Assembly (NCBI RefSeq): GCF_037042905.1
Contig: NC_087251.1
Location: forward strand, 21,330,001-21,394,000
Direction of reading: 5' to 3'
Length of the DNA: 64,000 bases
Source: Lytechinus pictus
Lineage: Eukaryota
Made by a program: the position numbers and the translations under genes. The notes below the pieces were generated by a model, which did not search any database, had not been told where the DNA came from, and saw only the letters and a list, made by a program, of their open reading frames with translations. Of this stretch, positions 12,609-41,242 are shown piece by piece; the first letter of the stretch is position 1; each line of letters opens with the position of its first letter.

Positions 12609-13438
12609 ATGGAGGATGATATGCGTGATTTCCCCTTTTATCATCTGAATAATGATGATTTCTTATTAATAAATCATCAAGATAAAAGCAATATTATCTC
12701 AAATCATCATAATCCATTTGATAGATTTTCTACTGATATTCTTACAAATAATTTTGATGAACTTCAAGTTGAATTCGATATTCATGATAAAGCATACAAT
12801 CTTTCCTCTTCTCCATATTATACAGAAAATTCATTCAAAGACTAAGCTAAATTGATTGGAGAAGATGATGTTTTTATTTTGCATTTGAATATAAGAAGCG
12901 CTAACCAAAACTTCGAGAAATTACGATTATTATTAGAAAATACACAGTTTGCCAATCCCCCAATTATTGCTCTTACTGAAACTTGGTTCACGGAAACCCC
13001 GAATTCCTTATGCACCCTCCCGAATTATGATATTGTTATAAACAATAGGAAAAATAAAATTGGAGGTGGACTAGCATTATATATTCCGTCTTCATTTGAT
13101 TATGCAATTAGACATGAATTTGAATACATGAATGAAATCATCGAATCCTTATTTGTAGAAGTAAAAATTCAAAAAGTTAAGAAAGCTCTAATAGGTGTCA
13201 TCTACAGACCTCCTCAAACTTCTTGTATAGAAGATTTTTTACTTGCTACTAATGAACTTTTGCAAAACGGAGAATTGATAAATAACAATTGTATCATCAC
13301 TGGTGATTTCAATATTAATCTCTTGACCAGTAATCACTCTTTAACAAATGATTTCCTTGAATTAATGTTATCTTCTACTTTTTTGCCTATTATTTCTAGA
13401 CCAACCCGTATTACTGATCATTCTGCTACGCTTATAGA
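12609..13438 (+). pseudogene. Host LINE ORF2, part 1: apurinic-type endonuclease domain
   Basis: Motifs HLNIRS, LTETWF, GVIYRPP, GDFNIN and PTRIT..SATLID. There is one in-frame stop at 12843-12845, and the ORF is cut by the insertion at 13439. Confidence 0.9.
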
Positions 13439-15855
13439 CATGGGCGGAAATCCCAGGGGGGACAGGGGGGACGTGTCCCCCCTACTCAAAATAGTAGGGG
13501 GGACACAATATCAAATGTCCCCCCTACTATTTTTTGTCTTTAATGATGGTAAGAAATACATCATTCTAAATCGAAATAAAACATGTATTTTGGGACGAGA
13601 TATGACCTTACTTTGGCGATGATAACTTTTTTTGCTTGTCAAATTGTCCCGCCCCTTGTCCCCATAGGCGGATCCAGGGGCCGAGGGGCCCGCCCCCCCC
13701 CCCCCCCCCCCCTCTTGGCGGAGCAAAAAAAAAAAAAGGAAAGAAAGAAGGAAAAAAGGAGGGAAAAGAGAAGAGAAAAAGAAGAGGACGACGAGTGCAT
13801 AAAATAAGATGAGGGGAAGACTTGGAAAATAAACGAATTTTTCGTGCCACTATATAAAATTTTTCGCTCGCGCTTCGCGCTCGCATTGCCTGTTAGGTGA
13901 TTTACATATCTTGTTCAATATGGAGTTCGAATATCAAGTTTGGAAGTCAATATACAAAACATGTTTCACCTCGGAAATCGAACTTTCATTATTTTGTGTG
14001 ATTTACAAATTGGTTTTTAAAAAGTGCTCTGTAAAAATGTCAGTTTTATGGTCTGAATGTTAACATTTGCTGCTTGCGCTGCGCGCTCGCAAATTTTGAT
14101 TTATCAGGTACCTATTATTTTCGTGTATTCCATAAAGTTTTCAAAATATCCCTTTTCAGGTCTGATTGTCAAGACCAAGACGTATCAGCTAGCGCGCTGC
14201 ACGCTCGCATTTTTATTGGCGAGTTATATAAATGTTTCAATATTGATTATACAACAAACTACTTAAAATCCCCTTTTCATGACAGTTTATCAAAAATTTT
14301 AGCTCGCGATTTGCGCTCGCATTAATGGTTAAAAATATATTAACTGATGCATCCCATTCATAAGCACAAAAGTGAAATGTCCAATTTTTATGCCAATATA
14401 TAATCAGATTTCGCGCCCTCATAAGGCATTAATAAATACGATATTAATTTAATAATTAAATTGTCCCTTTTGTTTCATCTCGCGCTTAGCAAGAGGATTA
14501 GGAAGATAGTCATCATTGTCATATGATGACATGTCGTAAGAATGTCCCGGTCCTATGTCAAAACTCAAAGTAATAATAATATCAGCTCTTTTTTATAAAG
14601 TGCGATCCATATCCACCTTACAATTTTTCTACAAAGGGCTTGAAATATAAAGCTGAAATTGACACTTTTTTCAGATCGGAATATCAAAGTTTCATGATTT
14701 TCATGATTAAACTTGTATTTAGAATGCCTAGATACTAGGTCTAAATATGAAACACGCTCGCGCATGTTTATTCAGATACTCAACTTGTTCTCTAATTTAA
14801 ATCATTATCCAGTTTCAGATCACATATCAAAAATTTTCTGCTCGCGCTTTGTGCTCGCATCATTATTGTAGGAAGACCCCATATTACTCATCCTTTTGAT
14901 GATTTACAAAACATGAACAGATTGGCCCATTTTAGGTCTAAATCTCGAATTTTTTTCTGCTCGCGCTTCGCGCACGCATCAATCGTTAAATTATATAGCT
15001 ATCCTGTTCACGATTACAAAAACTGATTAAAATTTTCAATTCTTTCTTTAGAAAGTTCAAAATTTTTCAGCTCGCGCTTCGCGCTCGCATTTTTTAATTG
15101 TTAAAATATGTAACGCCTTCATGGCTAAATGCAATCAGTCCTTAACAGGTACCTTTTCAACAGGTACCAGTTCAAAACGTATATAAAAATTTTCTGCTCG
15201 CGCTTTGCGCTCGCATTATTAATACTCATCCTTTTCAGGATTTACAAAACATGTATAGAGTGTCTCGTTCAGTAAATATTATAGGACTAAAATCTCGAAA
15301 TTTTCCGATCGCACTTTGCGCTCGCATTAATTGTTTACTTATATACCTATTCTGCTTGAGTTACAAAAAGTGCTTAGAATTTCCATTCTTTAGGTGAAAT
15401 ATCAAAAAAAAATTCAGCTCGCGCTTCGCGCTCGCATTATTTGATTGTTAAATGCTACTTTAACAGGTATGTTTTCCATCATTTCATTTCTGCTCGCGCT
15501 TTGCGTTCGTAGTAATTATTAAGTTGCATACACATCTTTTTCAGGATAGCAAACATTGCCCAGAATCAGTTCAAAGATTAGGAAAAAATACATAAAATTT
15601 CCAAAAAAATTAGCTCGCGCTTCGCGCTCGCATCATATAAATAAGGATTATGATATTATATATTAATTTATAAGAAAGAATAAAGCTAAGAAGTGATTAA
15701 TGAGGACTACCCCTTCAAAGAAACAACAAAAATCATCTTCGAGCTGCCGATCGGGGAAAATATGGCTGAAACAAATTTCCGCCCCCCCCCCTATTGGCGA
15801 AGGCTGGATCCGCCCCTGTGTCCCCCCTACCTTTTGGGAGAGATTTCCGCCCCTG
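13439..15855. mobile_element. Composite non-autonomous hAT-type element (outer MITE plus nested inner element 13663-15818)
   Basis: Outer TIR CATGGGCGGAAATC / GATTTCCGCCCCTG with an exact 8-bp TSD, CTTATAGA (13431-13438, 15856-15863). Inner TIR CATAGGCGGATCC / GGATCCGCCCCTG. Confidence 0.9.
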
Positions 15856-15863
15856 CTTATAGA

Positions 15864-17220
15864 TAATATATTCTGTAACTCTCATCCTCTTCCGAAAGCT
15901 GGCATTGTAACAACAGACATATCCGATCATTTTCTTATTTTTACCCATATCCAAACAATGCAATCACTCGCAAAAATGGAAAAGAAATATAGGATCTGTC
16001 GCAACTTTAGTGATAAAAATATTGAACGCCTTCAAGAAGATTTAAGCTCTGTTGATTGGTCTGACGTTTATAACTCGAATGTGAATGTCGATGACTCATT
16101 TGACATATTTTTGAAATCTTTCAATGACTGCTTAGATTCTTGTGTTCCTTTAAAGAAATATCGAAATTACGATTATAAACGTGTTCCAAAGCTCCCATGG
16201 GTTTCAAAATTGATATTAAGGTCTATAAATCGGAAAAATAATCTGTATGTTTCTTATATATCAAATCCAAATGATATTTTAAGGAATAGATACACGTCTT
16301 ATAAAAATACCTTAACAACTACTCTCCGAATAGCAAAAAAGAGGTTTTATTCAGAAAAATTAAAATCATATAAAAACGACATTAAAAATACATGGAAAAC
16401 AATAAATGGGGCCCTAAACAAAATTAACAAATCTAGTGCTGTTCATAAATTATGTGTAGATGGAAATATGGTTGAAGATACTCATTCTATAGCAAATGAA
16501 TTTAATACATATTTCTCTCAAATTGGACCAAAGTTAGCTGGAAATATTATGCCTGTAGAAAATTCGTTTAAGGACTTTTTGGATAAACAAAATGAAAGTT
16601 CAATATTTCTTACTCCAGTTCATAAAGAAGAATTACTTGAGATTGTATTTAATTTGAAAGCAGAAAAGACTCCCGGTTATGATGGCATTACAAATAGAGT
16701 TGTGAAAAACATTATGCATTCTCTTGCTGATCCTCTGCTTCATATATTTAATTTATCGTTGCAGCTTGGCCAGGTCCCAAAGAAGATGAAAATAGCTAAA
16801 GTTATACCCATTTTCAAGAAGGGAGACCAATTAATTACTAGTAATTACCGCCCAATATCTTTGTTAACTTCGTTCTCAAAAATTCTTGAAAGGATAATTT
16901 ATAAAAGGACAGTTGCTTTCCTTAAGAAATATAGTATTATATGTGATAATCAATTCGGTTTTAGAGAAAAACATAATACAACTCATGCTATATTGACATT
17001 AATAAATAAAATATCTACTTCTTTTGACGATTCCGATCACACCGTAGGGTTATTCCTCGACTTCTCAAAAGCGTTTGATACAATAGATCATGAAATACTA
17101 TTATGTAAGCTATCAAATAACGGTATCAGAGGGACAGCTTTACAATGGTTTAGGAGTTATCTTACTGATAGAATTCAGTTTGTTACAGTAAATGAATCAG
17201 AATCTCCAACAAGGCCAGTT
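15864..17220 (+). pseudogene. Host LINE ORF2, part 2: end of the endonuclease, linker and first half of the RT
   Basis: NIFCN..ISDH, PGYDGI, AKVIPIFKKG..NYRPISLL, QFGFR, FLDFSKAFDTI, WFRSYL. Confidence 0.9.
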
Positions 17221-19757
17221 GGTGTGTTATGTAATGGGATGAGTGATCATTACATTAGTTATTTTATATGGAAATCCCAACAAAAATTATCATCTGGTGA
17301 AACTTATATAAGGTATAGAAAATCCAGAAATGTTTATTTGGAGTCTTTCAGAAATGACCTTCGTAATCAAAACTGGAGGATAATAAAAGATTTTGATGAT
17401 ATTAATGACGCTGTCAATAAGTGGGAAATAATACTATTAGAAGTTGTTAATAAACATATGCCCTTAAAATCTAAGCGCATTCGTAAAAAATCTTCTCCTT
17501 GGATGAATAATGAGATCTTGTCTTTAATGAAAGAAAGAAATAAAGCTAAAAGAAAGGCCAAAACTAAAAACGATAATGATTTATGGAAATTATATAAAAC
17601 TCTGAAAAATAAGGTCACTTTTGTCATCCGGAAATCTAAAAGTAAATATTATTGTGACAAATTATCAAATGTAACAAATAGAAATGACTCTTGGAAAATA
17701 CTAAAATCCGTTATGGGCAAAAACAACAACTCGTCTAATAGCACTTTTCCCAAAGTAATGTCAGATGAAGTGGCTAATGGTTTTAACAATCACTTTGCTA
17801 ATGTGGCGTTGGAAATTGCTGATGAGTCAACAAATGTACACCATGATCATGTAGCGTCCACTCTGCATGAAAACTTTAAATTTTCGCCTATCTCTGAAAA
17901 CGATGTCTTGAAAGAGTTTCATAATTTGAAGAATACAAAGTCTGTTGGTCTAGATGGTATTTCAGTATATATAATCAAAGAATCAATTCCAGTTTTAATC
18001 GAACCTATTACTTTCTTGATAAATAAATCTTTATGTGATGGTGTTGTACCTGAGAAATGGAAAGTAGCCAAAATTGTTCCTATTCACAAGAAAGGTGATA
18101 AGTTTGAATTTAACAACTATAGACCGATATCGATTCTACCCTGTGTGTCTAAATTAATGGAAAAAATTGTGCAAAAGCAATTGCTTCGTTATATTCAAAC
18201 TCATTCTTTACTTTCTGCTTTTCAATCTGGATTCCGTCCGAAACACTCTACCATTACTGCTCTTGCTAAGGTAACGGATGACTGGTTTCATTCTATGGAC
18301 AATGGGCAGTATACAGGGGCTATTTTTATAGACCTTCAAAAGGCTTTCGACCTGGTCGATCATGCAATTCTCCTATCCAAACTTAAAAATATTGGTACAT
18401 CTGGTGATGAATTGCATTGGTTCAAAAGTTATTTGACTAATAGAAGAATACGTACATCCATTAATGGAATTTTATCTGAAGAAAGGGTAATTTTTAAGGG
18501 AGTACCCCAGGGATCTCTCCTTGGACCCTTCCTGTTCATTTTATTTATTGATGATATAATTTCTGTATTTAAAGAGTGCACCGTACACCTTTATGCTGAC
18601 GACACAGTAATATATTTCTCACATAAAGATATTAGAGTTATCGAACTCATCCTTAATAAGGAGCTGGAAATTCTATCTGTCTGGATGAACAGGAATAATT
18701 TGAAAATAAACTATGATAAAACTGTAAGCATGTTGATTGGAACACCTAAAATGCTTAAAAGGTCACAACATTTACAACTAAAAATTGACTGTCATTTACT
18801 GACTCAAGTGAATAGCTTTAAGTATCTAGGTGTCTTTGTGGATGAAAACATGAAGTGGGACTATCACGTAAATTATTTATGTAAAAAACTGGGGAGAATG
18901 ATTGGTTATATTGCACGGCTAAAGCATTTTGTAAATTTGTCAGAATTAAAGTTAATATATAAGTCAATAATTTTACCTCATTTTGATTATGGTGACATTA
19001 TCTATCAATCTGCAAACAAATCTCTACTTGACCAACTTCAAAAAATTCAAAATAGAGCTGGAAGAATAATCTTGAAAATTGACCCCTATTCACACACTTC
19101 AACCTCTCAAATTCATTCTATTATTGGTTGGGACACTATTAAAAAGAGACAGTATACTCACTTGATATTATTCATGTATAAGATTTGTAACAACATGTCC
19201 ACTGAATATATGAAAAATTTGTTTCATACAAAAGATACTCCTTACCCTCTTAGAAATGAAAATAATATATGTTTACCCAGACCTAGAACCAATAGTTGTA
19301 AAAGATCTTTCTCTTACCGAGCTGCATCTGAATTCAACAGAATCCCTTTGTGCGTGCGTAATGTCACCACTTTCAATTCTTTTAAAAATACATTTTTGAA
19401 ATATATCTGTGCTAAATGAAATTAAACCACTGATTTGTACCGGGGGGAGGGGGGTAGGTGTAGGTTATATGATTTTTCTTTGTTTTTAATGATTTCACTT
19501 ATATGTCTGATGGTCAACTTTCTTTATTTTATGGTAATCATAGCATTTTTGTAAGTAAACTGGCTCCATGGAAGACCAGCAGCAATGCATTATTGCAGCT
19601 GAATATGGACTACCAGCCGTATAATTTACTTTATTTTTTACCTTTTATTATTGTATCTTAATATTGACCTCATCATATCATGTTATATGTATTTGTATGT
19701 ACTTTGTATCTGTTATTTTATATACGGAAATAAAACAAACAAACAACAAACAAACAA
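17221..19757 (+). mobile_element. Second 5'-truncated L2/CR1-group LINE inserted into the RT of the first; its own RT is open from 17221 to the stop at 19419
   Basis: It begins just before the endonuclease SDH motif and has a complete RT (NYRPISIL, QSGFR, DLQKAFD, GVPQGS, YADD, YLGV). It has its own 3'UTR and an AATAAA-(CAAA)n tail. AGTT is duplicated at 17217-17220 and 19758-19761. Confidence 0.9.
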
Positions 19758-19761
19758 AGTT

Positions 19762-20646
19762 TCCTGTGGAATTCCACAAGGTAGTATTCTTCGCCCTTTG
19801 CTATTTGTACTTTATGTTAATGATATGAAAAATTCATCTCATGTTCTCTCATTTATTCTCTTTGCTGATGATTCCAATATTTTCTTTACACATCATGATC
19901 CACATGTACTTGTGAGCACTATGAATGCAGAATTTAAAAAAGTAACAAACTGGATTAAAGCCAACAAACTGTCATTGAATCTGCAAAAAACTAATTATAT
20001 GCTTTTTAGTCATTCATTGAAACATCTACCGCATCAAATACTTTTAGATAATACTGAAATCAAAGAAGTGCAAACAACAAAATTCTTAGGTCTTACTATT
20101 GATCACAAGCTTACGTGGAATGCTCATATCAACAATATTTGCAAAACTGTGGCAAGAAATATTGGAGTCACCAATAAGCTTAAAAACGCTCTTCCAGCAC
20201 AGGCGCTATCCATGTTGTATTGTGCATTAATTCTACCATATCTTAATTATGGAATTCTGGCATGGGGTAATGCCTCTCAAACGAGACTCAATAAAGTCTT
20301 GCTACTTCAGAAAAAAGTACTGAGAATAATATGCAATATGTCCTTTAGAGCTCATACAGATGAATTGTTTCGCTTGCAACTATTCCAATTCATGTATCAG
20401 CTAGATAGAAATAGTGTACCTAATGTCCTACAAAAGAAATTTATGAAAAACAATACTTTACATTCATATAATACGAGACATTCAAATGACTATCACTTAC
20501 CCAAAAGTAGAACAGTATTTTCTAGCAAAACTGTATTTTTCACAGGACCAAAACTCTGGAATTCTCTGGACAGAGTAATAAAAGAGGCAGCTAATCTAAA
20601 CCGATTTAAATTACTCATCAAAAAATTTATTCTGAATTCTTATTGA
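19762..20646 (+). pseudogene. Host LINE ORF2, part 3: second half of the RT and C-terminus
   Basis: It resumes with SCGIPQGS, FADD, KFLG..ID..L.W..HI, YGILAWG and GPKLWNSL, and joins SPTRPV from part 2. Confidence 0.9.
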
Positions 20647-21206
20647 TTCAATCAAATATTTTGTGAACCTCATACTTACCCACGGTAGTATTGATTATTT
20701 TAAAGTCAATATTTAATTTTGTATATAGTGTAAATACATTTGTGTTACAGTGTTTATATATAATTTTATAGAATTTTGCTGATTATTTTACTCTACTTAT
20801 ATCATATTACCCTTTTATAAAATTTTGATAGGGGGTCTACATTTTACAAGCTTTGCTTTTTATTAGGCCCCTCCACTTTTTTCATTTCATTGCTACGTTT
20901 CAATCCTGCATGTGTTATGCATTTTTTTCAGTGTTAAAATGATTTATTATAAATGTACTTTGATGATTGTGGAATATGAATATATCAATAAATAAATAAA
21001 TATCGTGAGGTCTAAAAATGCCAATTCTTTTAAATGCGCAATTTTAAGAACATCCATTTGTGAACTTGAAGCTATATAGCAAAAACCAAGCACAGGGACC
21101 CATGTTAATTTTTGCATATTTGGAATATTCAGGTGCTAAAGTATCTGTGCTCAAAGTACGATGAAAAAATGAGTCGGACATCGTGGTGGTGCCATGTATT
21201 GATGAC

Positions 21207-21499
21207 CACTTGCGTACCTACGGGGGGGGGGGGGGCAGGTGGGCAGTGCGCCCCCCCCTGACGAGCCACAACCCATACAAAAGACATATCCCTGCCTTGA
21301 AGAGCTTGAAAGACCTTTTTTGCCCCCCCCCCCCCTGACGAGCTTGAAGACCTTTTTTTTTTTTTTTTTTTTTGCTTATCAATTTTTTTTTCTGGTACGA
21401 AAGCCTTTATTTTTTATTGAAGACCCCTTTTTTTTTTGCTTGTCAAATTTTCTGGCGGGCGATTTTGCCCCCCTGTGGAAAATCCTAGGTACGCCACTG
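21207..21499. mobile_element. hAT-type MITE
   Basis: CACTTGCGTACCTA / TAGGTACGCCACTG termini; 8-bp TSD TTGATGAC (21199-21206, 21500-21507). Confidence 0.85.
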
Positions 21500-21761
21500 T
21501 TGATGACCCATTGTATAACCCCTAACCCCACCACATTTTTTTCAACTTTGAAACAAAAAGTACTTTTTTGAGGGAAAAAAAAATTTCAGCCAAAAAAGTA
21601 AAAAAGGGTGTGAAATAGATAAGTGCTTTTTACACCCACACGCCTTTAAAAATAATAAAGATATAAGAACAACATTGTTAGTCCAGGTATGAATCTTTAT
21701 TCTTGCTTTTTTACATGATGGATGCATAAGAAATGACTGGATGCGAAATTATTGCATGAAG

Positions 21762-22249
21762 TTAGGACTGGGGTAAGTTGAGCAAACCAACAAGGGGCAA
21801 GTTGAGCCATGGTAATTCTTATGGTAATGTATATAAAAAAACAAAGAAACCTTTAAAGGCCATCGATATGCAGGCAGAAAGGAGCAAATTTACATGACTG
21901 TCCTTTTCCTTTTAGAAGATGTTGGCGTTTATAGAGAATAAGCGTGTAAAAAGACTGTCAATAAAAAAAAATTGACATGGTGGTTCTTCCCCCATACATT
22001 TTGTACATAAGTTTTTGTGGCTCAACTTACCCCAGAAGGTGGCTCAATTTCCCCCACAGATGGGGCAAGTTGAGCCATTTGACATCTCTTTTTGTGACTT
22101 TCAGTGTGGGGGTAGAAAGTTATATATAGGTGATAAATATTTCAGAAGAATTAGATTTTAAGGCAAGGTACCTATTTCTTCAAGATCATTAATCATATCA
22201 GTTCTAACATGCAAAAAGCAAAGAGTGTCACAACTTACCCCGCCTTCTC
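21762..22249. mobile_element. Degenerate MITE with GGGG(T/C)AAGTTGAGC subrepeats (Tc1/pogo-like ends)
   Basis: GGGGTAAGTTG at ~21770 is mirrored by CAACTTACCCC at ~22231, and the motif recurs internally. Boundaries are approximate. Confidence 0.55.
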
Positions 22250-22285
22250 AAACAGACCACAATCCTCGTGTGTTTTAGTTCAGCA

Positions 22286-22983
22286 TAGGCCCCATAGAAA
22301 ATTGACTAAACCTTGTTTTTCATATATACAATATTTTGTATGGTTTCTTGTCAATTCGAGGGTTTTGATTACGAATCTGAATGATGTCACTCGTGCAACC
22401 TTGAGCATTTTCCGCAAATTGGCAAAATCCAATATGGCCGCCAAAATATGCAAATTACCCATGAAAATCACAAAATTGCCCGCACTATAAAATGCATAAA
22501 TTGTGTGGCAGGAGTGAAATACTCTCTGAATTTTTTTTTTTTGACAACATATTTATTTTCTGAATATTCAAAATGGCCGACATAGGCCTCTGTATACTCT
22601 ATTATATGTACAGCATAAATATAGGAAAAACTAATTTTCACACAAATTAGCACTAAACTGCAAGAAATCGTGCTATATATGAAGGAAGTACTGTATGCAA
22701 ATCGCCATTACTAATGAGATATATTATTCATTATGTCATGTATGGGAAAATTGCTGTATTTTGATATTTAAAATAGCCGCCACTGGCCCAAACAGTATTA
22801 TGTACAATGACAATATATATACAATAGCGGCCATATTGGATTTTGCCAATTCGCGGAAAATGCTCAAGGTTACACGAGTGGCATCATTCAGATTCGTAAT
22901 CAGCACCTTCGAATTTACAAGAAGCGATAAAAAAATATTGTATATATGAAAAAACAAGGTTATGCCTCTTCTATCCTGGACTA
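22286..22983. mobile_element. MITE with ~150-bp TIRs and TAG...CTA ends
   Basis: CCTTGAGCATTTTCCGCAAATTGGCAAAATCCAATATGGCCGC is mirrored at ~22827-22869. The ends are TAGGCC and GGACTA. No clear TSD. Confidence 0.75.
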
Positions 22984-23039
22984 ATAACAGTAATTTATCC
23001 TTTATCTTTGGAATCTACTCTGCTTTTAATTCAACTACT

Positions 23040-23790
23040 TTATCTTTAAATATTAAAAAAAAAATCTTGATCTACGCACAAACTGATTAGATTTCCAATA
23101 AGAATTCCCAAAGTGAGGAGCATGTACATGGTTCTGTAATTGAAGCAGTACACCTGAGTGATCTGGTGTAAGTGATTTGAAAATATCAAAAAGGAAACAA
23201 CCAATAATCCAACCGATTTTGAACAATTGGCCACTTTTGTCTAAATGTATTTTTTTAGCTGGATTCTTCTTTCTCCATATATCTACTACAAATGATCTGT
23301 CAAGAAGGTCTTCAAACTTATCATCGAATCGATTTCTAATTAACTTTCGAGGCCCCATAATTCTCCATTCATTATCATATTAAATTTCCAACTAAAATAA
23401 TTGCACCTTCAGAACTGTAAAACTTTGAAATACGATTTTTCAATTCATCTAAAAATTCCATTTGCATCTTTCCTTTATCTCTGGTAGGAAAATAGCAATT
23501 TACTGAGTAAAAAGTAAATTGTTGGTATTCTAATTTCACTATTATAAGTCTTCCATTTTCACCAATACTCACATCTTTCATTTTCATATTCAAATTTGGA
23601 GAAATCAAAACTAAAACACCTTTACTAAGATTTGTTCCATTGTGATGACTAAACAATAGTCGACCATTCCACTCTGATTTCCATTTTTCTTCCACCTCCC
23701 GTACTCTATGTTTCCTGTAAAAATGCTATGTGACTGCCTTCATCTCTGCAAAATTAAAAAAATGTTTCCTCTGACATTTAAAGTTAAGAA
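23040..23790 (-). pseudogene. Decayed L1/Tx1-clade LINE endonuclease fragment
   Basis: Frameshifted pieces: FLQE, W..EW.G...FSH, SKGVLVLI, GRLIIV, NCYFP, DIWRKKNP, PDHSGV. Confidence 0.8.
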
Positions 23791-24622
23791 AGTAAAATAT
23801 GACCTCCTACCGAAGTATTAACGCCCTATCCCGTAAAAATATGCAAATGAAACTGACCAAGTAACAGATTTAAATGTGAACAGGCATCACCACGCTCCAA
23901 ACAATTAATCACTTTCACTACACCACACGAAAGGCACACCCATTCACCCATTCACCCAACACAATTGCACTATCCATCGAAACGTTGATAGTGCATGTAA
24001 TAATAGCCGTGAGACATTAATTGATAAACCAATTAATAAGGAAATATCTTCCAAGTGAAACATAATACACACACATGCACCCGTTGCTCTCACTCGCACA
24101 CACACACATGACTGATTGTCTGCCGATTGTCTGATAGAAATAGCCATTTACGCTCTAAAAGCGATAGAATAGAAAAGCACAATAGAATACAAACTAATAT
24201 ATCATTTTCAGGGTGCACATTTTAATTTCTAAGAAATTCCTGTAAAGGTACAAACGTAATCATACTGGCATTTGCATTTCTATTGTATGTTATACATTGC
24301 CAAACGTGTAAAAGTTTTCGTATTCATTGCAAATTCTCACGAATTCCACCCAAAGTGTGCACAATAATTATATTCTTCGTTTTCATTGTTTGAATCACAC
24401 TTAGCTGTTCGGTAAGCTCCATAAATTCGCTCTTCGCTCCCTCTCTTAAAAACTTAACATTATACGTATTATTGCATCTTAATATAAAATACAACCATGA
24501 TCTCGTGGGTAAAGATAAAGAAACAAAAATGAATGAATGAAAATAATAATCTTCAGGACAATGCTCATTAGGACAACTACCACATATTATGAGTTCACTT
24601 CCCTTAATGACTATAACCTTAA

Positions 24623-25139
24623 AGATCAAGTCCACCCCAGAAAAATGTGGATTTGAATCAATAGAGAAAAATCAAACAACTCAGTGATATGCAAATGGGA
24701 GATTTGATGTCCCTCAGTCCCTATTTCTTTTTTTTTTTATTGTTTGAATTATACAATGTTTCGGTGGTTTTTTTTTTTTTTTTTAATACAAATTTGACCA
24801 TGAGGGCCAATTCAACTGAACCATAAAATGTTAAGATAATGGTGATTCCAAATGTTCAGGGAGGAATAAAACTTGGTTTAATATGATATTGAGGAGAAAA
24901 TAAGAATATTTCATAATCATATGATAAAATACAAAGGAGATAGCGAGTGGGTGACGTCACCAGTCCTCTCATTTACATACCCGGCCGACCAAGCTGTGCA
25001 TGTAACTGTTTTATGAAATTAAACGAAACTTAAAAATGGCATAACTTTCTTATTTTACATCCGATTTCGATGAAGTTTTCTTTGTTATGGTTGTTGGATT
25101 TTTCTTTTTCTATTGTCTTTGTTGTAGCGGGCTTGTCCT
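24623..25139. mobile_element. TTAA-flanked MITE (Kolobok-like)
   Basis: TTAA|AGATCAAGTCCACC ... GGGCTTGTCCT|TTAA. It is the same family as 37353-37900, with a partial copy at ~56600-56960. Confidence 0.75.
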
Positions 25140-25536
25140 TTAAGAATTACCTTATATCCAAAGTAAACAAAAAATATCCACCTAGACTCGGGTGGTCATT
25201 ACCATTGTATCATTGAACCTTTATTCGAGTGGTAATAATCGGCGGAATGATATAAAATTTTCAAGGCAAGATAGAACAAAAAACTGCCGCTCTTTAAATT
25301 TACTAATCCCGTGAGAATTCTATAATCAAATCAAATCAAAAGAAGTAGTATGCACACGCATACATTCTAAATATTCTCCATTTAACGCCTTAACTTCATT
25401 TCTGAATTAATTGAACAAAAGTGGTTTGCTGAACAAACCTTAAAATTATGAATTTGTCTTTTTCTTTCACATTTTTATTATATGTATTTTCAAGGTTTAA
25501 TTTGTCACTTTGGTGCTACCCTGAAGCTTTCGTAAG

Positions 25537-26247
25537 TAATGCACTTTTTCTGCTCATTCACTGAAAAATATCTCTAGCTTTTAGCACCTCCAAAAAATAT
25601 AACATTTCTGTCATCAAACTTACTTCTTGGGCGGCATTTCCCAAGAAGTAAGTTTGATGACAGAAATGTTATATTTTTTGGAGGTGCTAAAAGCTTTTAT
25701 TTAGTTTCACAACTTCACTCTTCTCATAAAGTACAACTAACCTCCTAATTAAGTGTGCATAGCTAATCGCGTTCATTTCACATCCACTGATTGTACATTA
25801 CACATACCTATGGCGTTCATTACACATACTGCGTGTTCATTACAGTTCAAGTATCTGCATACGATTTTTAATGCACTTTTTCTGCTCATTCACTGAAAAA
25901 TATCTCTAGCTTTTAGCACCTCCAAAAAATATAACATTTCTGTCATCAAACTTACTTCTTGGGAAATGCCGCCCAAGAAGTAAGTTTGATGACAGAAATG
26001 TTATATTTTTTGGAGGTGCTAAAAGCTAGAGATATTTTTCAGTGAATGAGCAGAAAAAGTGCATTAAAAATCGTATGCAGATACTTGAACTGTAATGAAC
26101 ACGCAGTATGTGTAATGAACGCCATAGATATGTGTAATGTACAATCAGTGGATGTGAAATGAACGCGATTAGCTATGCACACTTAATTAGGAGGTTAGTT
26201 GTACTTTATGAGAAGAGTGAAGTTGTGAAACTAAATAAAAGCTTTTA
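25537..26247. repeat. Near-perfect 560-bp palindrome (25688-26247) plus an adjacent 120-bp hairpin (25576-25695) with an inverted loop
   Basis: The large palindrome has 276-bp arms, one visible mismatch and loop AAATGCCG (25964-25971). The small hairpin loop is CGGCATTT (25632-25639). Confidence 0.95.
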
Positions 26248-26546
26248 ATGGATTTGTTAGATTATTTCAAGAAAAGTAAAGTAGTATGAGTTAAAGGAAA
26301 ATTAAGCTTATGAAATGAACAAAGGTGAATTTTAGGAGTTTGATGGGCACGAATCGTGCGTGTATGGGCGTGGTCTTTAAATTGCGTGATTTGTTTACAT
26401 TTAATTATATTCAGTCAGATATATTTGAGTAAACATTTATAAAGCACTTTAAGAATTTGTGCGTTTGTAACCAAAATAATTTTGACTTGTTAAGACAATT
26501 TTTGGTCAGAAGTTTTTCATACGAACGAGGCTTAATTATGTGCAAG

Positions 26547-28786
26547 CATGGGCGGAAATCCCAGGGGGGACAGGGGGGACGTGTCCCCCCTACCCAAAAT
26601 AGTAGGGGGGACACACTATCAAATGTCCCCCCTACTATTTTTGGTATTTTACGATGGAGAAAAATGCATAATTCACATTTGAAATAATACATGTATTTTG
26701 GACTAAATGACCTTACATTTTGGGTGAAAACCTTCGTGTTTTTTTTTTTGGGGGGGGGGCTTGTCAAATTTTCCAGAGTGACTAAAATAAGATGAGGGGA
26801 AGACTTGGAAAATAAAAAGAATCTTTCATGTCACTATATGAAATTTTCGCTCGCGCTTCGCGCTCGCATTGCCTGTCAGGTGATTTTTCAATATGGAGTT
26901 TAAATATCAAGTTTGGAAGTCAATATACATTACACATTTCGGAAATCGAACTTTCATTATTTTGTGTGATTTACAAAGTGATTTTTAAAAAGTGCTCTGT
27001 AAAAGTGACAGCTTCATGGTCTGAATATTGACATTTTCTGCTCGCACTGAGCGCTCGCAAATCTCGATTTATTAAGTACCTATTATTTTTGTGTATTCCA
27101 TTTAGTTTGAAAAAATCAAGTCTGATAGTCAAAACGTATCAGATAGCGCTGGCTACTCGCTCGCATTTAATCGGCGATTTATGTATGTCTCAATATTGAC
27201 TTTCATGACAGTTTATCAAAGATTTTGGCTCGCGATTTGCGCTCGCATTAATGGTTAAAAAATATTTTGACCGATGCATTCTATTTATAATCACAAAATT
27301 GCTTGAAATGTCCAGCCTTCAGGCCATAATATCATCAGATTTCTCGCCCTCATTAGGCATTAATAAATAAGATATTAATAATTTAACGATTAAATTGTCC
27401 CATTTGTTTCATCTCGCACCTAGCAAGAGAAATAGGGAGATAGTCATCATTTTCATATGACATGTCCCAAGGATATCCCGGTCCTATGTCAAAACTCAAA
27501 TAACAATGAAAAATATCAGCTCTTTATTAAGTGCGATCCATATCAACCTCACAATTTTCCTACAAAGTGCTTGAAATATATATAGCTGAGATGGACTCTT
27601 TTTCAGATTTTTCATGATAAAAGAGGTGTAGAATGCCTAGATTCTAGGTCTAAATCTGAAACACGCGCATGTTTATTCAGATATTCAACTTGTTCTATAT
27701 TTAAATCATTATCCAGTTTCAGATCACAATATCAAAAATTTTCTGCTCGCGCTTTGTGCTCGCATTATTAATGTAGAAAGATCCCCTATTACTCATCCTT
27801 TTCATGATTTACAAAACATGAATAGAGTGTCCCGTTTTTAGGTCTAAATCTCGAATTTTTCTGCTCGCGCTTCGCTTGCATCAATTGGTTAGTTATATTG
27901 CTACCCTGTTCACGATTACGAAAATTGATTAAAATTTTCGATTCTTTTTGTAGAAATGTCAACAATTTTCAGCTCGCGATTCGCGCTAGCATTATTTGAT
28001 TGTTGAAATATGTAACGTCTTTATGGCTAAGTGCACGCAGTCCTTAACAAGTACCTTTTCGATCAGTTCAAATTAAAAAAACATTTTATGGCTGCACTTT
28101 GCACTCGCATTATTAATGTGAGGACCGGGTGTAAGGAAGGCCCCCAATTACTCATCCTTTTCATGATTTACAAAACATGAATAGAGTGTCTCGTTCTTAT
28201 AGGTCTAAATCTCAAAATAGTTCCGCTCGCGCTTCGCGTTCGCATCAATTGTTTAGTTTTATACCTATTACATGTTTCAGTTACAAAAAGTGCTTAGAAT
28301 TTCCATTCTTTAGGCAAAAATTTAAGCTCGCGCTTCGCGCTCGCATTATTTGATTGTTGAAATATGTAACGTATTCATGGCTAACCTTTTCCATCAGTTA
28401 ACATCTGCTCGCACTTCGCGTTCGAAGTAATTATTTAGTTGCATATACATCTTTTTCAGGATAACAAACATTGCCCAGAATGTTCAAATTTTAGGAAAAA
28501 TACATAAAATTTCCCCCCCCCAAAAAAAAAAAAAAATTTGCTCGCGCTTCATGCTCGCATTATAGATAAGGATTATGATATTATATATTTATGTTGAATT
28601 ATAAGAATAAAGCTAAAAAGTGGCCATGAGGACTACTCCTTCAATGAAACAAACAAAAATCATCTTCGAGCGGCCGATCGGGGATTAACATACGGCTGAA
28701 AAAAAAATTCGCCCCCCCCCCCATTGGCGAAGGCTGGATCCGCCCCTGTTGTCCCCCCTACCTTCCGGGACAGATTTCCGCCCATG
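26547..28786. mobile_element. Second copy of the composite hAT-type element
   Basis: TIR CATGGGCGGAAATC / GATTTCCGCCCATG with 8-bp TSD TGTGCAAG (26539-26546, 28787-28794). It is colinear with 13439-15855, but the inner left terminus is deleted. Confidence 0.9.
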
Positions 28787-29995
28787 TGTGCAAGGTCATG
28801 TCAGGGTCACTCGTTCCGTTTTTCGCACATTCAATTTTAGTGTGCAACCGCTAGCTAAAGAAAGCTTTCGGTCTATATTTTAGATTTTTCTGATAATGTC
28901 AAAATTGGGATAAATAATAATGAAACACCTTGGTAATTTATTTCTTACCGGACTTATTTGGATATAAGCTGAAGTTAGCAGACAAGTTTGCTGTCTGTTT
29001 ACCTTTTAAGGTAATTTTGTTCAGAATATAGAAATTACTAAGTGGGAACGCAAAGTTGATTTAAAGGTATATATTTAAGCAGTTCACTTTGATTTATTGC
29101 AAATATGTATGCATGTATTTAAGTTAGTCTTTTTCAAGACGTTAAAGAAAATGGACAAATTTTAAACTGGTTTTTCTATCGAGGAAAACTCGGATATTTG
29201 TTTATATATATTCGTTCTATACACCTGATATGAATGATAATTAGATTTATATTCCTTATTGTTTAAAAGAGATGACAATTTTGGGAATATTATGAAAACA
29301 TTTATTTTTGTCAAAGCATTGGACATATATTTATGATCCACTTCGTTTTCTTATGTTTATACAGATTGAATAATACACGGTAGTGAGCCTGCCTAACTAT
29401 CCAATTTAAAGCGGCTTTCCTAGCCTCTGTTATTTCGTAGTCTTCGACGATCCAAAAAGATTTTTAACTATTACATAAGTCAAGCGGGTATTACGCACGA
29501 TCCGGTTAGAAATAACCTTTGTGTCAATTCGAGAGTACTAATGGGTGTCAAAGTAAAATTATTTAATTATTTCTATCTCCATGGTAATACACTGTTCAAT
29601 AAGGCACCAATTAGGCATCGAAGCCGGTGATCGGCCGTGGGTTCCTTTAACAAAAAGTCTAAATATTGTATTGGATTAGTCAGTTGAATGATTATAACAG
29701 TCATGTACTCTGTAAAACTGATGTAAAATAATGGCATTTAATAATCGTGATGGCTTCAACTATAATTGTCATTATTGTGTGTATGGTAGTGAAGCGGGTG
29801 TTTCTCTTTCACATGCGATTAATAATCCTTAGAGCTTTTGAAATTAGATTACAATGTATAGTCACAACTTGATTTCAACATCACATTTGACAATAAAATC
29901 GGAATGAGAGATAGATAAGTACCACTTCACCATTTTCCACTTCGTACGTCATTTGATTATGATTCGACAGCAAGCTGCCTATATAACACGCTGTG

Positions 29996-30630
29996 TATTT
30001 CCACTCCTTAAAAAAAGAAAAAGAATATCATCGTTCGATCAGAGTCAGCGCTATACCTTTACAATAAACAATGTCATACTTGTAAATAAAGAGTTCAGTA
30101 TATGCTTACAATATAATGTTAATTCATATCGATGTACAGTTCATAATACAAATGATACTCCCTATTGTGGTGTCCAAATATATTTCGAAGATTTTTTAAA
30201 TAATTTGAGCGAACATGTTTCAACAAGCTTATTTCCACTCCTCAAAAAAGAAAAAAAAAAGAACTGGAGATGTTATTCTCACATTGACATCATCGTTCAC
30301 TCAGAGCCAGCGCTATACCTTTACAATAAACAATGTCATACTTGTAAATAAAGAGTTCAGTATATGCTTACAATATAATGTTAATTCATATCGATGTACA
30401 GTTCATAATACAAATGATACTCCCTATTGTGGTGTCCAAATATATTTCGAATAATAATTTGAGCGAACATGTTTCAACAAGCTTATTTCCACTCCTCAAA
30501 AAAGAAAAAAAAAGAACTGGAGATGTTATTCTCACATTGACATCATCGTTCACTCAGAGCCAGCGCTATACCTTTACAATAAACAATGTCATACTTGTAA
30601 ATAAAGAGTTCAGTATATGCTTACAATATA
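29996..30630. repeat. Tandem repeat of ~250-bp units, about 2.6 copies
   Basis: TATTTCCACTCCT and CAGCGCTATACCTTTACAATAAACAATGTCATACTTGTAAATAAAGAG recur in units starting ~29996, ~30230 and ~30484. Confidence 0.9.
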
Positions 30631-31317
30631 TTACGTTTGCATCACTTTTCTTTGCTGATGATGCAATGCTGATCATGCCTCATATTGCATTTTTTTCTAA
30701 ATAAAAAGACAGGTAACAGGTGGTCCATTCTTGCAAAGCTACACCACTGCCCCGCCGTTGGCTTTCTAACCATGTAATGCTAACAATTATCTGACAATGT
30801 CACCTCAAAAATGAGGACGGTCTAGAGCTATTTGGGGGATGGAGCTGAGCAAATTTTCTTGAGATATTTGCTAATATATTAAAAGATGTAACGAATGCTT
30901 GAATAACATAATATACATCTATACTAATCCAACTGGAATTTTGGCTGCATGGACCCTAAAGAGATCTTGTGTTAAATAGCGATTCATTATGAAATGTGAC
31001 TATGAGCCATAATTACATTCGTTTCAACCTATATGGAGTTATTTATTATTCAATTTGCTTTCAGAACATTCAATGATCTAGCATGATGAAATATACACGC
31101 CTATAAAAAAAAACCTTAATGATTCATACAAATGTTTATTAAATAAATATTTACATCAAATTGAATGATCTCAGAAAGGAGGTCTCTTAGATATCCTAAA
31201 GTTATAAATTCACGCAAACCAATCTAACACCGTCTAAAAGTAAACGTTGTATTCGTATGAGTTGATAACTCGGTAATATGCATATTTTTTTAGCCGAACA
31301 AAATTGAAGAAAATGTT

Positions 31318-32583
31318 TCATTTTTCAGGAATAGGGAATCCAGTCACGGTGGAATGGCAAGAGTTTGTCCACCATTCATCCCAATCGTTGACTAACGGTT
31401 TCCTTCCTCTCTTTCCTCTTTCACCCCGCTCCATTTCCTCGTCTTTTAATACTCGATTAACAACACTATCACAGAGAGCCTGGGGTTGCATGTTTGAAAA
31501 CTGTATATGTGATGTAACAGACCCTTCCTTCTTCCATTCAAAATATTCATTATACAGAGCATCGTTTTCACTGAGCTTCACCAGGTAAGCTGCCAGTGTT
31601 TCTATAGATGAAAAATCTGGAACAAATATGAAGGAATTTGGTGGAGCTACTCTGAGATAGTTTTCCTTTGGGGCTCCAAACACGATGGGTATCAAACCAA
31701 GAGTAAGCGAGGTGTACCAAAATTTTTCAGTGATGTAATCCTCACATTCCGAATTTTCGAGCGCTAGGTAAAACCTGTACTTCTGTAGACCACAGGTAGC
31801 CAGATCCTTACAAGCCATGGTTCCACAAGGGCCGTATTTATCAACTTCGACATGTCGCGCCAATGCATTCACAAACCCTGTGCGATCATAGCTTAATGTA
31901 GAAGGGTGGCAATTAGTAGATACCCAAGCAACCATTTTGTCTTTATTTGCCGCCCAGTTCGTGTTGTCATTCTTTTGAACCAAAGACGTTATTCTATCAA
32001 AATGACCATATCCACCATCAGGGAGATATGCATCTGTCTCCGTTACCCCTTTCCTATATGTCATGATGTAATCATAAGTTTTATTTCTATGTTCTGGTGG
32101 TGGAATTACACGGTGGTTGGTGTGGCGTGGGCTCTCCGATGTCCAGAAAACCCACTTCTGTCTGTCCGATTGATGCTCAAGAAGGTCATACCAATTCCAT
32201 TCTGACTTGTAAAACAAAATTACGACGTCACTGGCAGCAAGTCTGGTCAGGTTGCGACCATGTTCAATCTGAACACCACAAGAAAGGCCAGGACAAGAAA
32301 ACCTACCAGTTTCCTTGAATATCAGGTTGACATGAAATGTATCACGTTCATCCAGCCAAGTATAAACAACTTTATAGCACAATGGATTTTTTCCTCCTGC
32401 AGGCGTGGCTGCCTCGTAATCTACCATGCCTGAAATGCTCCGAGTGAAGTTGCCGTCGAGATAGGAGCGATGTATAAGGTTTTTCTGGGGATGCGTAGGT
32501 GTCATTGTGCGTAGTGAAATTACAATCCATATTACCGAAATGTTCAGTCCAAAGATTATGAATATCTTCTTCAAATGAGGCAT
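31318..32583 (-). CDS. Alpha-(1,3)-fucosyltransferase, GT10 family, type II membrane protein, 421 aa, uninterrupted CDS
   Basis: N-terminal KK plus hydrophobic anchor; SDVVILF, QKWVFWTSESP, MTYR, VAWVSTNC, VDKYGPCG; GT10 signature YRFYLALENSECEDYITEKFW; IPIVFG, PPNSFI, YNEYFEW. A candidate splice acceptor lies in the 5'UTR at 32769-32770. Confidence 0.95.
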   Translation of the reverse strand: MPHLKKIFIIFGLNISVIWIVISLRTMTPTHPQKNLIHRSYLDGNFTRSISGMVDYEAATPAGGKNPLCYKVVYTWLDERDTFHVNLIFKETGRFSCPGLSCGVQIEHGRNLTRLAASDVVILFYKSEWNWYDLLEHQSDRQKWVFWTSESPRHTNHRVIPPPEHRNKTYDYIMTYRKGVTETDAYLPDGGYGHFDRITSLVQKNDNTNWAANKDKMVAWVSTNCHPSTLSYDRTGFVNALARHVEVDKYGPCGTMACKDLATCGLQKYRFYLALENSECEDYITEKFWYTSLTLGLIPIVFGAPKENYLRVAPPNSFIFVPDFSSIETLAAYLVKLSENDALYNEYFEWKKEGSVTSHIQFSNMQPQALCDSVVNRVLKDEEMERGERGKRGRKPLVNDWDEWWTNSCHSTVTGFPIPEK

Positions 32584-32989
32584 CGTAAAATAGTAGCGAT
32601 GTTATAAGGTTTACATACAAACAAGCCACATTCGCATTAGCATGGGATACGTATATGAACGTTATCAGTGCACAAGTGAAAGTACGTATATATCAGCTAT
32701 ATTAGCTCCCGCGGATCATTATGGTTGGATAAGCAGATTGGAGGGATGCAGGTCAGTGATCAAGTGGGCTGTAAAATACTTTTATCAAAACTCAGTCAAG
32801 CTTTTCGCAATGGAATGACAAACACCGGACCTTTCATGGTTGAATAGGGTCCATGGTTGGATATTAGAGCAAAAGAAGTTAACGAAATTCGATTACAGAA
32901 ACCAAACCAATCGACCACGTGCGTTTTTTGTTGTTTTTAAACTTAACCGTGTTGTTGATTTAAATGTTATTCTTTCAAGATTTCATTTA

Positions 32990-37937: not shown

Positions 37938-40900
37938 TTTGATGATGATGCACAGCATTTGTATAGCGCCATATATCTGTCAAAGACATTCAAAGGCGCA
38001 TTGGAGGAGCCAGCCAATCTGGGTCGCCAAGAAGTAAAGGGCGCGCGCACAGAACTGTGACCCGCATGTCTCTCCTCCCGATAACTGGTTGGAGAATGCA
38101 GGTGGACCACTACACCGGGGTTCCCCCCCCCCCCCCGTTTCCTCCTACTCTTATTCGAATAGTGCAGTGGGTTCTTAACGTGCAAAGGTGGTGATTCTCC
38201 TCTACACGGGGCCTCCATTTAACGTCCTATCCGAGGGACAGAGTGTTTTTTCACTGTAACATAGCCTGCATCTATGAAACAGGGTAGAGACGTTTACACA
38301 CAACGCACTGGCTTCAGTCATCCGCCCGCCCGGGGTGGACTCGAACCCACGATCTTTGGTTCGACGGGCAAAATAGGCTTAAAAAAGGAAATTTCTGGTA
38401 ACAAGCTGATTTTTTCAGGATAGGTCCAGGAAAATGTCTAGAATAACATACTAAAAGTCCTCATAAATCCTCCGTGGGGGTTTTCCGTAATCCAAGATGG
38501 CGTCCAAAATGACCGCCATTCACAGAAAATGGACATAACTCACTCATAATTCACACTAAATATCAAATTTTGGTGCATATTTCATTGTTTAAAGAGGTAA
38601 AAGATCTAGTGATATAGTTAAGAGTGAAAATAAGCAGACTAGGGTACCTAAAATTCCAAGATGGTGTCCAAAATGGCTGCCAAAGCCTAAACATGCTAAA
38701 AATCCATTATTCATCTATTACTTTCTTTAATGTCTTTAATTTTGTGTCTATTCAATGGTTTTAATGGTCAAGGAATAAAATGGGACAAGTTACAAGGACA
38801 GTCAGTGGTCAAGTATGTCCAAAAATTCAAGATGGCTTCCAAAAATTGAGTCTAAAATGGCTGTTTTTACTTACGAATGGACATAGTTCATTCAATATCT
38901 GCCTGCGATATATGATTTTGGTGTCTAAACCATGGTTTGAAAAATCAAATAATACATTTGGACAACTTAAAAGGACATTCAGTGGTCAGGTATGTCCAAA
39001 AATCCAAAATGGCTTCCAAAAATGGAGTCTAAATTGACCGCTGTTACTGAAAAATCGATATACTTCATTAAAAAATCCACCTGAGATATATAATTGTGGT
39101 GTCTAAACAATGATTTAAAGGGTCGAATAATATATTAGCACAAGTAAAAAGGACAGTCAGAGGTTCAGTATGTCTAAAAATCGAAGGCTGCTTCTAAAAA
39201 TGGAGTCTAAAATGGCCGCTGTTACATACAAATTGACAAAGTTCATTTAATATCTGCATAAGATAAGAGTTTGGTATCTAAACATGGTTTAGAGGGTCAA
39301 ATAATACATTTTGACTAGTTAAAAGGATTGCTTCCAAAAATTGGGTATCAATGATTGGTTACTGTTATTTAAAAGGCACAGGTGACGCCAAAACAAATAA
39401 CAATAATAATAAAACGACTTCTGAGACTTACAAATTCTGCCTGATATATATGATTCTGATGTCTAAACCATGGTTTGAAGGGTCAAATAATATTTTTGGA
39501 TTGTTAACAATGATAATGCAGTTGTCCATTTTCCCTAAAAATCCAAAATGGCTTACAAAATGGCGTGTAAATGACTCCAATCACTTAAAAAATTATCATT
39601 ATTCATACATTATCCTCATGTGAGGAATAATTGTGGTGTCTACGCTTATATACATTTGGGAAAAGTAATCTTAAGGATTTAAGAGTAGGTAACAGCAGGC
39701 ATGTTTGCTCAATTTGGGAACCAAATTGCACATATAATGGAAAACTGAACATTCTTGCAATTGACTTGTCCTAAATATATATTTGACATTTCAAACCATA
39801 GTGCAGAAACAAAATTTATTTCTCACATGTGAATATTGAGTATGACTTATTTTAAGCGATGAGAGTTAAACGCCATACCTTTGATTATGAAGGAAAATTG
39901 ACAATTGCATATCATCATAAGCTGTCCCAAAGTATTATTTGACACTTGAAACTATAGTATAGACACCCAAATATTATCTCTCAGGCGGATATGTTATTTT
40001 TGTAAGAAACATCAGCCATTTTTAGACTCCATTTTTGGAAGCCATCTTGGATGTTTGGACATACTGGACCACTGACTGTCCGTGTAAGTTGTCCAAATGT
40101 TTCATTTGGCTCTTTAGACCATGGGTTTAAGAACCCTAATCATACCTCACAGGCAGATATCAAATAAAGTATGTATTTTTATTAAGTACCAGCGGTCAAT
40201 CTAGACTCCATTTTTGGAAGCCATCTTTGGTTTTTGGACATACTAGACCACTGAGTGTTCTTTTAACTTGTCCATATGTTTTTATTTGACCCTTCAAACC
40301 ATGGTTTGGACAACAAAATCTTATCTCCCATGCAGATATTAAATGACCTATGTCAATTTGTATGTAACAGCAGCCATTTTAGACTCCATTTTGAGAAGCC
40401 GTCTTCGATTTTTGGACATACTGGACCTCTGCTTGTCCTTTCTTCTTGTGCTTATGTATTATTTCGACACTTAAAACCATAGTAAAGACACCACAATCAT
40501 ATCTCTCAGATGGATTTTTAATAAAGTATGACAAATTTTCAGTAACAGCAGTCAATTTAGACTCTATTTTTGGAAGCCATCTTGCATTTTGGACATACTT
40601 GACCACTGAATGGCCTTGTAACGTGTCCAAATGTATTATTTGACCTTTCAAACCATGGTTTAGACACCAAAATCATATATCTCAGGCAGATATCAAATGA
40701 ACTATGTCCATTTGTAAGTAAAAACAGCCATTTTAGACTCCATTTTAGAAGCCATCTTGGATTTTTGGACATACTAGACCACTGAATGTCCTTGTAACTT
40801 GTCCCAAATTATTACTTAGCCATTAAAACCATTAAATAGAAACAAAATTAAAGACATTAAAGTAAGTAATAGATGAATAGTGGATTTTTAGGCTTTGGTA

Positions 40901-41242
40901 GCCATGTTGGACACCATCTTGGATTTTTAGGTACCCTGGTCTGCTTATTTTCACTCTAACCTATATCACTAGATCTTTTTACCTCTTTAAACAATGAAAT
41001 ATGCACTGAAATTTGATGTCTAGTGTGAATAATGAGTGAGTTATGCCCATTTTCTGTTAATGGCGGCCATTTAGGACGCTATCTTGGATTACGGAAAACC
41101 CCCACGGAGGATTTATGAGGACTTTTAGTATGTTATTCTGGACACATTCCAGGACCTATTCTGAAAAAATCAGCTTGTTACCAGAAATTTCCATTTTAAA
41201 CCTAATGCTCTTGGCCTATTTACCGACTGAGCCAACTTCGCT
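37938..41242 (-). mobile_element. tRNA-derived SINE (central domain resembles the Nin domain), head split by a 2.8-kb insertion
   Basis: On the minus strand, A box TGGCTCAGTCGGTA (~41221-41234) and B box GGTTCGAGTCC (~38336-38347). The body contains CTACTCTTATTCGAATAGTG..GGGTTCTTAACGTG and the tail is (CAT)n at ~37941. The Nin assignment is from my memory of the consensus. Confidence 0.8.
38374..41218. mobile_element. Non-autonomous foldback DNA transposon with TAGG..CCTA ends and ~180-bp subrepeats
   Basis: GGAAATTTCTGGTAACAAGCTGATTTTTTC (38386) is mirrored at ~41163-41192, and the inverted match extends ~1 kb inward. The left end lacks ~15 terminal bases. Confidence 0.9.

Follow-up and report, generated by a model that had tools for sequence, protein, structure and literature searches.

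A loop that stands in both of its orientations is a product of polymerases that copy through a hairpin, and loops are inverted in this way in the flip and flop termini of parvoviral rolling-hairpin replication and in hairpin telomeres. Penelope-like retroelements are marked by an adjacent RT and GIY-YIG ORF, by pseudo-LTRs and often by hammerhead ribozymes.

The closest descriptions of inverted local copies come from work on repair and template switching. In fly assays of synthesis-dependent MMEJ (SD-MMEJ), the passages cited from PMC5728401 describe snap-back and loop-out junctions that most commonly use primer repeats of 3–4 nt lying <10 bp apart, with mean deletions of 9–11 bp, and complex insertions built from overlapping local copies over several rounds are described as well (Yu and McVey 2010, PMC2943611). 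Fold-back priming at yeast double-strand breaks is reported at inverted repeats of 5 bp and of 11 bp, the latter imperfect (PMC10622511), and human inverted duplications are associated with 2–8 bp of inverted microhomology (PMC3907307). Inversion of a spacer by template switching is described as common between human and chimp (PMC5453318).

Here we analyse a nested palindrome in a 64-kb stretch of DNA (the window). The palindrome is most likely the scar of a templated insertion of the snap-back type, a known class of repair error, of which it provides a clean, long example. We put at roughly 0.75 the probability that it is a real, derived and probably rare allele left by a single repair event of iterative snap-back synthesis. 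It has no evident function.

Architecture of the nested palindrome

The larger of the two structures is a palindrome with arms of 276 bp each (25688–25963 and 25972–26247), which differ at one position (C at 25807 against A at 26128) and enclose an 8-nt loop at 25964–25971. Immediately to its left, the segment 25537–25695 is the reverse complement of 25908–26066, and a small hairpin with a stem of 56 bp occupies 25576–25695; its loop (25632–25639) is the reverse complement of the loop of the big palindrome. The two structures share the 8-mer 25688–25695, which lies within a self-complementary 12-mer. The initial annotation had described a 560-bp palindrome with 276-bp arms and one mismatch, preceded by an inverted copy of its apex with a flipped loop; both descriptions proved exact on re-measurement, the inverted copy showing 0 mismatches over 25537–25695.

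The folding of the nested palindrome lies far beyond chance (z = −48.7; 20 shuffles). No other hairpin in the window combines perfect arms of at least 20 bp with a loop of at most 30 nt. A blastn search with word 7 found no extra copy of the arm elsewhere in the window. The DNA around the palindrome is AT-rich (~35% GC) and non-coding, and contains many foldback and MITE-like repeats.

The window has several other features. A large foldback-like inverted-repeat element lies at 84–7517, its arms made of roughly 390-bp units with 178-bp-type units inside. Another foldback-like element at 38379–41200 has outer inverted repeats of 224 bp and, in inverted arrays, 178-bp units related to units at 1.7–3.8 kb, and inverted arms of 15-bp tandem repeats stand ~1.3 kb apart at 59221–60924. 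Fragmented LINE-type endonuclease and RT ORFs at 12846–20646 apparently represent two nested elements; a 2-kb repeat is inserted at ~13.6–15.7 kb, and its family is found again at 26.5–28.6 kb and 57.1–57.6 kb. The segment at 24619–25143 (~525 bp) is bounded by TTAA and has short inverted ends, presumably in the manner of a Kolobok-type MITE. On the minus strand, a single ORF of 427 aa (31318–32601) carries glycosyltransferase family 10 (fucosyltransferase) domains.

An unrearranged allele in other sequencing runs

Four of the 15 runs listed were aligned to the window at 85% likeness. Three of these are contig sets, X1 and X6 (organism label A, study P1) and X9 (organism label B, study P3), and the fourth, X13, consists of raw reads. 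In each of X1, X6 and X9 one contig agrees with the window as far as 25541 and then has 109 different letters, after which it follows the window again from 25960 onward (to 26545), with 0 mismatches up to the contig end. Where this plain allele has 109 bp, the window has 418 bp. The plain allele is seen in all three contig runs aligned, that is, in two studies and under two organism labels, and the new junctions are carried by 0 aligned contigs of these runs, contigs being a form of data that drops rare variants, and palindromes a kind of sequence that reads badly.

A wider view comes from an index of sequencing runs, in which 10 runs from four studies contain part of the stretch, none of them recorded as an RNA run. 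Their shares range from 0.23 to 0.87, with none near 1.0; the share of 0.23 belongs to X10, which has a different organism label. Shares predicted from distinct words agree with those seen, at 0.63 against 0.64 for the plain-allele pieces of X6 (in X6–X8) and 0.55 against 0.55 for those of X9. For the plain allele together with the window's left flank the predicted share is 0.90, and X1–X5 come near this at 0.83–0.87. The plain allele is consistent with every indexed run whose share is >0.5, which we infer for the runs other than X1, X6 and X9.

Collapse of the palindrome in an assembly graph was considered as a source of the plain contig and rejected. At k=31, a graph built from the palindrome allele falls apart into 10 short unitigs without any new letters, rather than giving a single long contig as observed, and the plain contig is therefore not a collapsed palindrome.

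Despite its other organism label, X9 shows 0 differences across 626 bases (window 25474–26517). X1 and X6 differ from the window upstream of 25422, a second structural polymorphism ~120 bp to the left of the scar: the X6 contig is unlike the window for 5.5 kb upstream of this point, and X1 forks there. The loose-end sequence of both was not found in the window.

Anatomy of the inserted tract

Comparison of the two alleles allows each part of the rearranged region to be given a source. The features are as follows.

25542–25959, no strand: templated tract of 418 bp, replacing 109 plain-allele letters; the plain joint 25541/25960 is seen in X1, X6 and X9
25537–25541, plus strand: 5-bp microhomology TAATG at the left break end, matching the reverse complement of 26062–26066; putative final join
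25576–25695, no strand: small hairpin with the flipped loop 25632–25639, ascribed to a second round of synthesis
25688–25695, plus strand: 8-bp microhomology TAAAAGCT, assigned to the second priming
25688–25963, minus strand: left arm, the new copy, attributed to a first snap-back of 272 nt past the 4-bp primer
25807, plus strand: arm mismatch, the derived base, in the copied arm
25960–25975, no strand: 4-bp inverted repeat TGGG/CCCA with an 8-nt spacer, the probable primer of the snap-back, at the right break end; the plain-allele match begins at 25960
25972–26247, plus strand: right arm, the original single-copy template, colinear and identical in X1, X6 and X9
26236–26247, no strand: self-complementary 12-mer, the putative stop of the first synthesis; present at both palindrome ends, where it mimics a target-site duplication

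The tract is accounted for by 102 + 52 + 264 bp copied from 25960–26247, with agreement at 417 of the 418 bases. The left arm is missing from the plain-allele contigs apart from the 4 primer bases. Since the right arm has 0 differing letters in X1, X6 and X9, the base at 26128 is the plain-allele state. The plain allele contains both TGGG and CCCA, which means that the primer existed before the rearrangement, and the 4-nt end has one annealing site in the 586-nt strand. The probability that a junction match of the observed length arises by chance is ∼0.024 for the 4 bp, ∼0.0003 for the 8 bp and ∼0.008 for the 5 bp, each taken singly. Several features expected of a templated insertion are found here: an insertion coupled to a deletion relative to the plain allele, local copies, a pre-existing primer and microhomologies at the switches.

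A model for formation of the allele

Loss of the 109 bp between 25541 and 25960, whose replacement is read directly from the plain allele, would have begun with a break or a collapsed fork. The right piece, whose bottom strand has the 3′ end CCCA, could then have folded so that this end paired with TGGG across the 8-nt loop. Extension from this primer would have copied 272 nt of the strand itself, giving the big hairpin and ending at the self-complementary 12-mer. At the 12-mer the new end may have detached, and its last 8 nt re-paired with a copy of this 8-mer lying 212 nt back on its own new strand. From there 151 nt would have been copied back through the first loop, producing the second hairpin with its flipped loop, a product that the sequence fits. 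The loop isomer would be flipped because this second pass of synthesis ran through the hairpin loop. In the last step, the end CATTA would have paired over 5 bp with TAATG of the left break end, a microhomology that is present in the sequence, before being sealed. The order of steps proposed here resembles iterative snap-back SD-MMEJ or fold-back priming, for which the polymerase might be Pol theta, Pol delta or another.

A bottom-strand simulation with two self-primings rebuilt 1008 of 1009 bases. Its copy lengths (272 and 151 nt) were set by hand, and both stops fall at the microhomology used next; use of the alternative 8-bp site gave 117 mismatches.

The same tract can also be read from the top strand, as the product of template switching at a replication fork (FoSTeS/MMBIR, or an extended four-point model) without a free break. 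Parsed in this direction, the 102 + 52 + 264 bp fit equally well, with 1 mismatch, and the passages cited from PMC5453318 report template switches in human genomes by which inverted repeats arose and spacers were inverted. Fork switching, however, needs four switches, at microhomologies of 5, 4, 8 and 4 bp, against three for the snap-back route, and on two occasions it has to halt at one and the same 4-bp stem, on the edge of the deletion, whereas the bottom-strand route covers both stops with one free end. We regard fork switching as possible, though unlikely.

The snap-back model could be extended at its first step if excision of a small transposon, comprising all or some of the 109 bp that were lost, had opened the break, in which case the scar would be an aberrant footprint. 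Such an origin would suit a window rich in foldback and MITE-like repeats. The contigs that hold the 109 letters are unbranched, however, and an element present in many copies should cause contigs to break; we consider this addition very improbable.

Search for a related mobile element

The initial annotation had offered two readings of the locus, a recent fold-back or template-switch product and a hairpin-ended mobile element. The first is supported by the plain allele and by the rebuilt sequence. According to the second, the palindrome would be the footprint or the body of a non-coding element that is parvovirus-, protelomerase- or Penelope-like, or of the foldback type, and the adjacent flip and flop loops are what such an element might leave. 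Direct repeats of the kind that could mark its ends are also present, one of 12 bp flanking 25700–26235 and one of 5 bp flanking 25542–26245. Against this, the plain allele keeps one whole arm and the loop, so that there is no empty site, and we judge a mobile element to be extremely unlikely.

Both direct repeats were examined as target-site duplications and rejected. The 12-mer is single in the plain allele and is doubled solely by the inversion, and the 5-bp repeat is no more than chance predicts, given the 320 end pairs tested.

The arm looks single-copy, as judged from the 64-kb window and the aligned contigs. In X9, probably a DNA run, 1 of 18,652,641 records aligned to the stretch at 85% likeness, under a filter that omits some records, and 2–3 records aligned in X1 and X6. 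Dispersed copies, as expected of foldback elements or MITEs, were not seen in the 64 kb or the aligned contigs, nor was a target-site duplication with an empty site.

Coding sequence that could serve a hairpin-ended element was also sought. No ORF of at least 150 aa lies within 20647–31317, and no Rep/HUH, protelomerase or GIY-YIG gene was found near the hairpin. A Pfam scan of 11 ORFs, including six of the eight long ORFs of the window, returned solely fucosyltransferase, RVT_1 and Exo_endo_phos. The closest RT ORFs end at 20646, ~4.9 kb off, and are accompanied by an Exo_endo_phos domain, as in LINEs. Rfam gave 0 matches at gathering score between 20 and 32 kb; with this result, and with an RT that is of LINE type and ~4.9 kb away, the hallmarks of Penelope-like elements were not found at the locus. 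Exact matches to viral contigs (2 patterns) and to metagenome contigs (2 patterns) numbered 0, in collections that are poor in animal DNA. A hairpin replicon would have its hairpin at the tip of a linear molecule, with flip and flop as alternative states of a single end. This is likewise not what is seen here, where flip and flop stand in cis inside a chromosome and the flanks are colinear with the plain allele.

With one arm in the plain allele, and with no repeat family and no Rep, protelomerase or GIY-YIG gene found, the hairpin-ended element of the initial annotation is left unsupported. The annotation had itself allowed that a single-copy arm with no related element would point to a one-off repair scar, and this is what the contigs show, as far as their data go. 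Its remark on flip and flop holds in that the loop inversion is explained by copying through a hairpin; the hairpin-ended element that it linked to this is unneeded, a one-time repair being sufficient.

Evidence for the palindrome allele in RNA reads

The raw reads of X13 are RNA reads from 2026 and belong to a third study (P5); ∼6% of the run was read, and 32 reads aligned. Their depth over 25334–25756, which is binned and not read by read, adds up to 602 bases. When the outermost ends are fixed and reads are taken as 149–151 nt long, this depth resolves to four reads, at ∼25376–25526, 25405–25555, 25458–25607 and 25569–25718. Two of these fragments (∼25458–25607 and ∼25569–25718) appear, from the binned depth, to cross the new junctions. 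The plain allele would match these two reads at 98 of 150 and 75 of 150 bases. None of the 32 reads fits two places, which argues that the junction-crossing reads are not misplaced plain-allele reads, and none of the 32 has the plain joint.

Inside the palindrome the X13 depth is 0 (25757–26179), against 5–10 just to the right. This gap would fit the loss of a long hairpin from the library; RNA depth is uneven, and the fit is only suggestive. A 1-bp deletion at window position 26394 is present in six of seven X13 reads and found neither in the window nor in the X1, X6 and X9 contigs, indicating that the main haplotype of X13 is not identical to that of the window.

These reads bear on the question of whether the structure is a technical chimera, a fold-back generated by amplification, library preparation or reference assembly that has no counterpart in living DNA. 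Strand-displacing amplification is known to yield inverted chimeras primed by microhomology, the contigs of X1, X6 and X9 show the plain allele only, and no share exceeds 0.87 among the 10 indexed runs, all of which would agree with such an origin. The X13 reads, however, come from a separate RNA study and appear to span the same junctions, with the plain joint not seen among them; the copied arm carries one substitution; and, despite a three-step detour and the loss of 109 bp, the window continues as it should on either side. A chimera is, in our view, improbable. On evidence that is thin but positive, the palindrome allele is probably real in living DNA.

Transcription and significance

All X13 first mates over 25146–26545 are on the plus strand, and the region is thus probably transcribed from the minus strand. 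This probable transcription lies ~5 kb downstream of the fucosyltransferase ORF.

A more far-reaching proposal is that the allele is heritable, that ordinary break repair made a rolling-hairpin-like second pass through its own hairpin over hundreds of bases, and that the 276-bp inverted repeat survives in a population as part of a transcript, forming allele-specific dsRNA, which would be edited or diced and would alter the host transcript. We hold this to be decidedly doubtful. If the allele does segregate and is transcribed, it would make a small test case for the survival of a long perfect palindrome in an animal germline and for newborn dsRNA. As a product of iterative snap-back, the locus would be a clean natural instance of multi-round repair: knowledge of the unrearranged allele allows each of its priming sites to be identified. 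It would also indicate that flip and flop loops can come to lie side by side without a virus or a mobile element.

Relation to known systems

The ends of parvoviral genomes and hairpin telomeres share with this locus the inversion of a loop by copying through a hairpin. They differ from it in setting and in machinery: the palindrome occupies an internal chromosomal site and would have been formed once, with no nicking enzyme, replicon or repeated copies.

The closest likeness is to snap-back SD-MMEJ, which, in the passages cited from PMC2943611 and PMC5728401, also combines a deletion with overlapping, inverted, adjacent copies made over several rounds and closed by a final microhomology join. 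At the edge of the break, both likewise share an inverted primer of 4 nt with a short loop (PMC2943611; PMC5728401). Synthesis of limited extent, followed by pairing at a newly made microhomology, also belongs to SD-MMEJ as given in PMC5728401. In contrast to the products of the fly assays as given in PMC5728401, the tracts here are far longer, at 272 and 151 nt, with an insert of 418 bp. A further difference is that the second round here passes through the hairpin made in the first, and that the allele is a natural one.

Fold-back priming in yeast and human cells similarly starts from a resected 3′ end that anneals to a short inverted repeat on the same strand and is extended, as described in the parts of PMC10622511 and PMC3907307 cited. 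There, the same passages indicate, the product is hairpin-capped and proceeds to a dicentric chromosome and large duplications, whereas here synthesis would have ended after 272 nt and the break been rejoined locally. The four-point template switch, as outlined in PMC5453318, also yields new perfect inverted repeats and an inverted spacer without a mobile element. That model, in the same outline, involves one short-range switch and return, whereas the present allele calls for two successive copy events, one of them on the new strand. The palindrome is no pointer to a new system; what is distinctive about it is the length of its tracts and the second pass through a hairpin of its own making.
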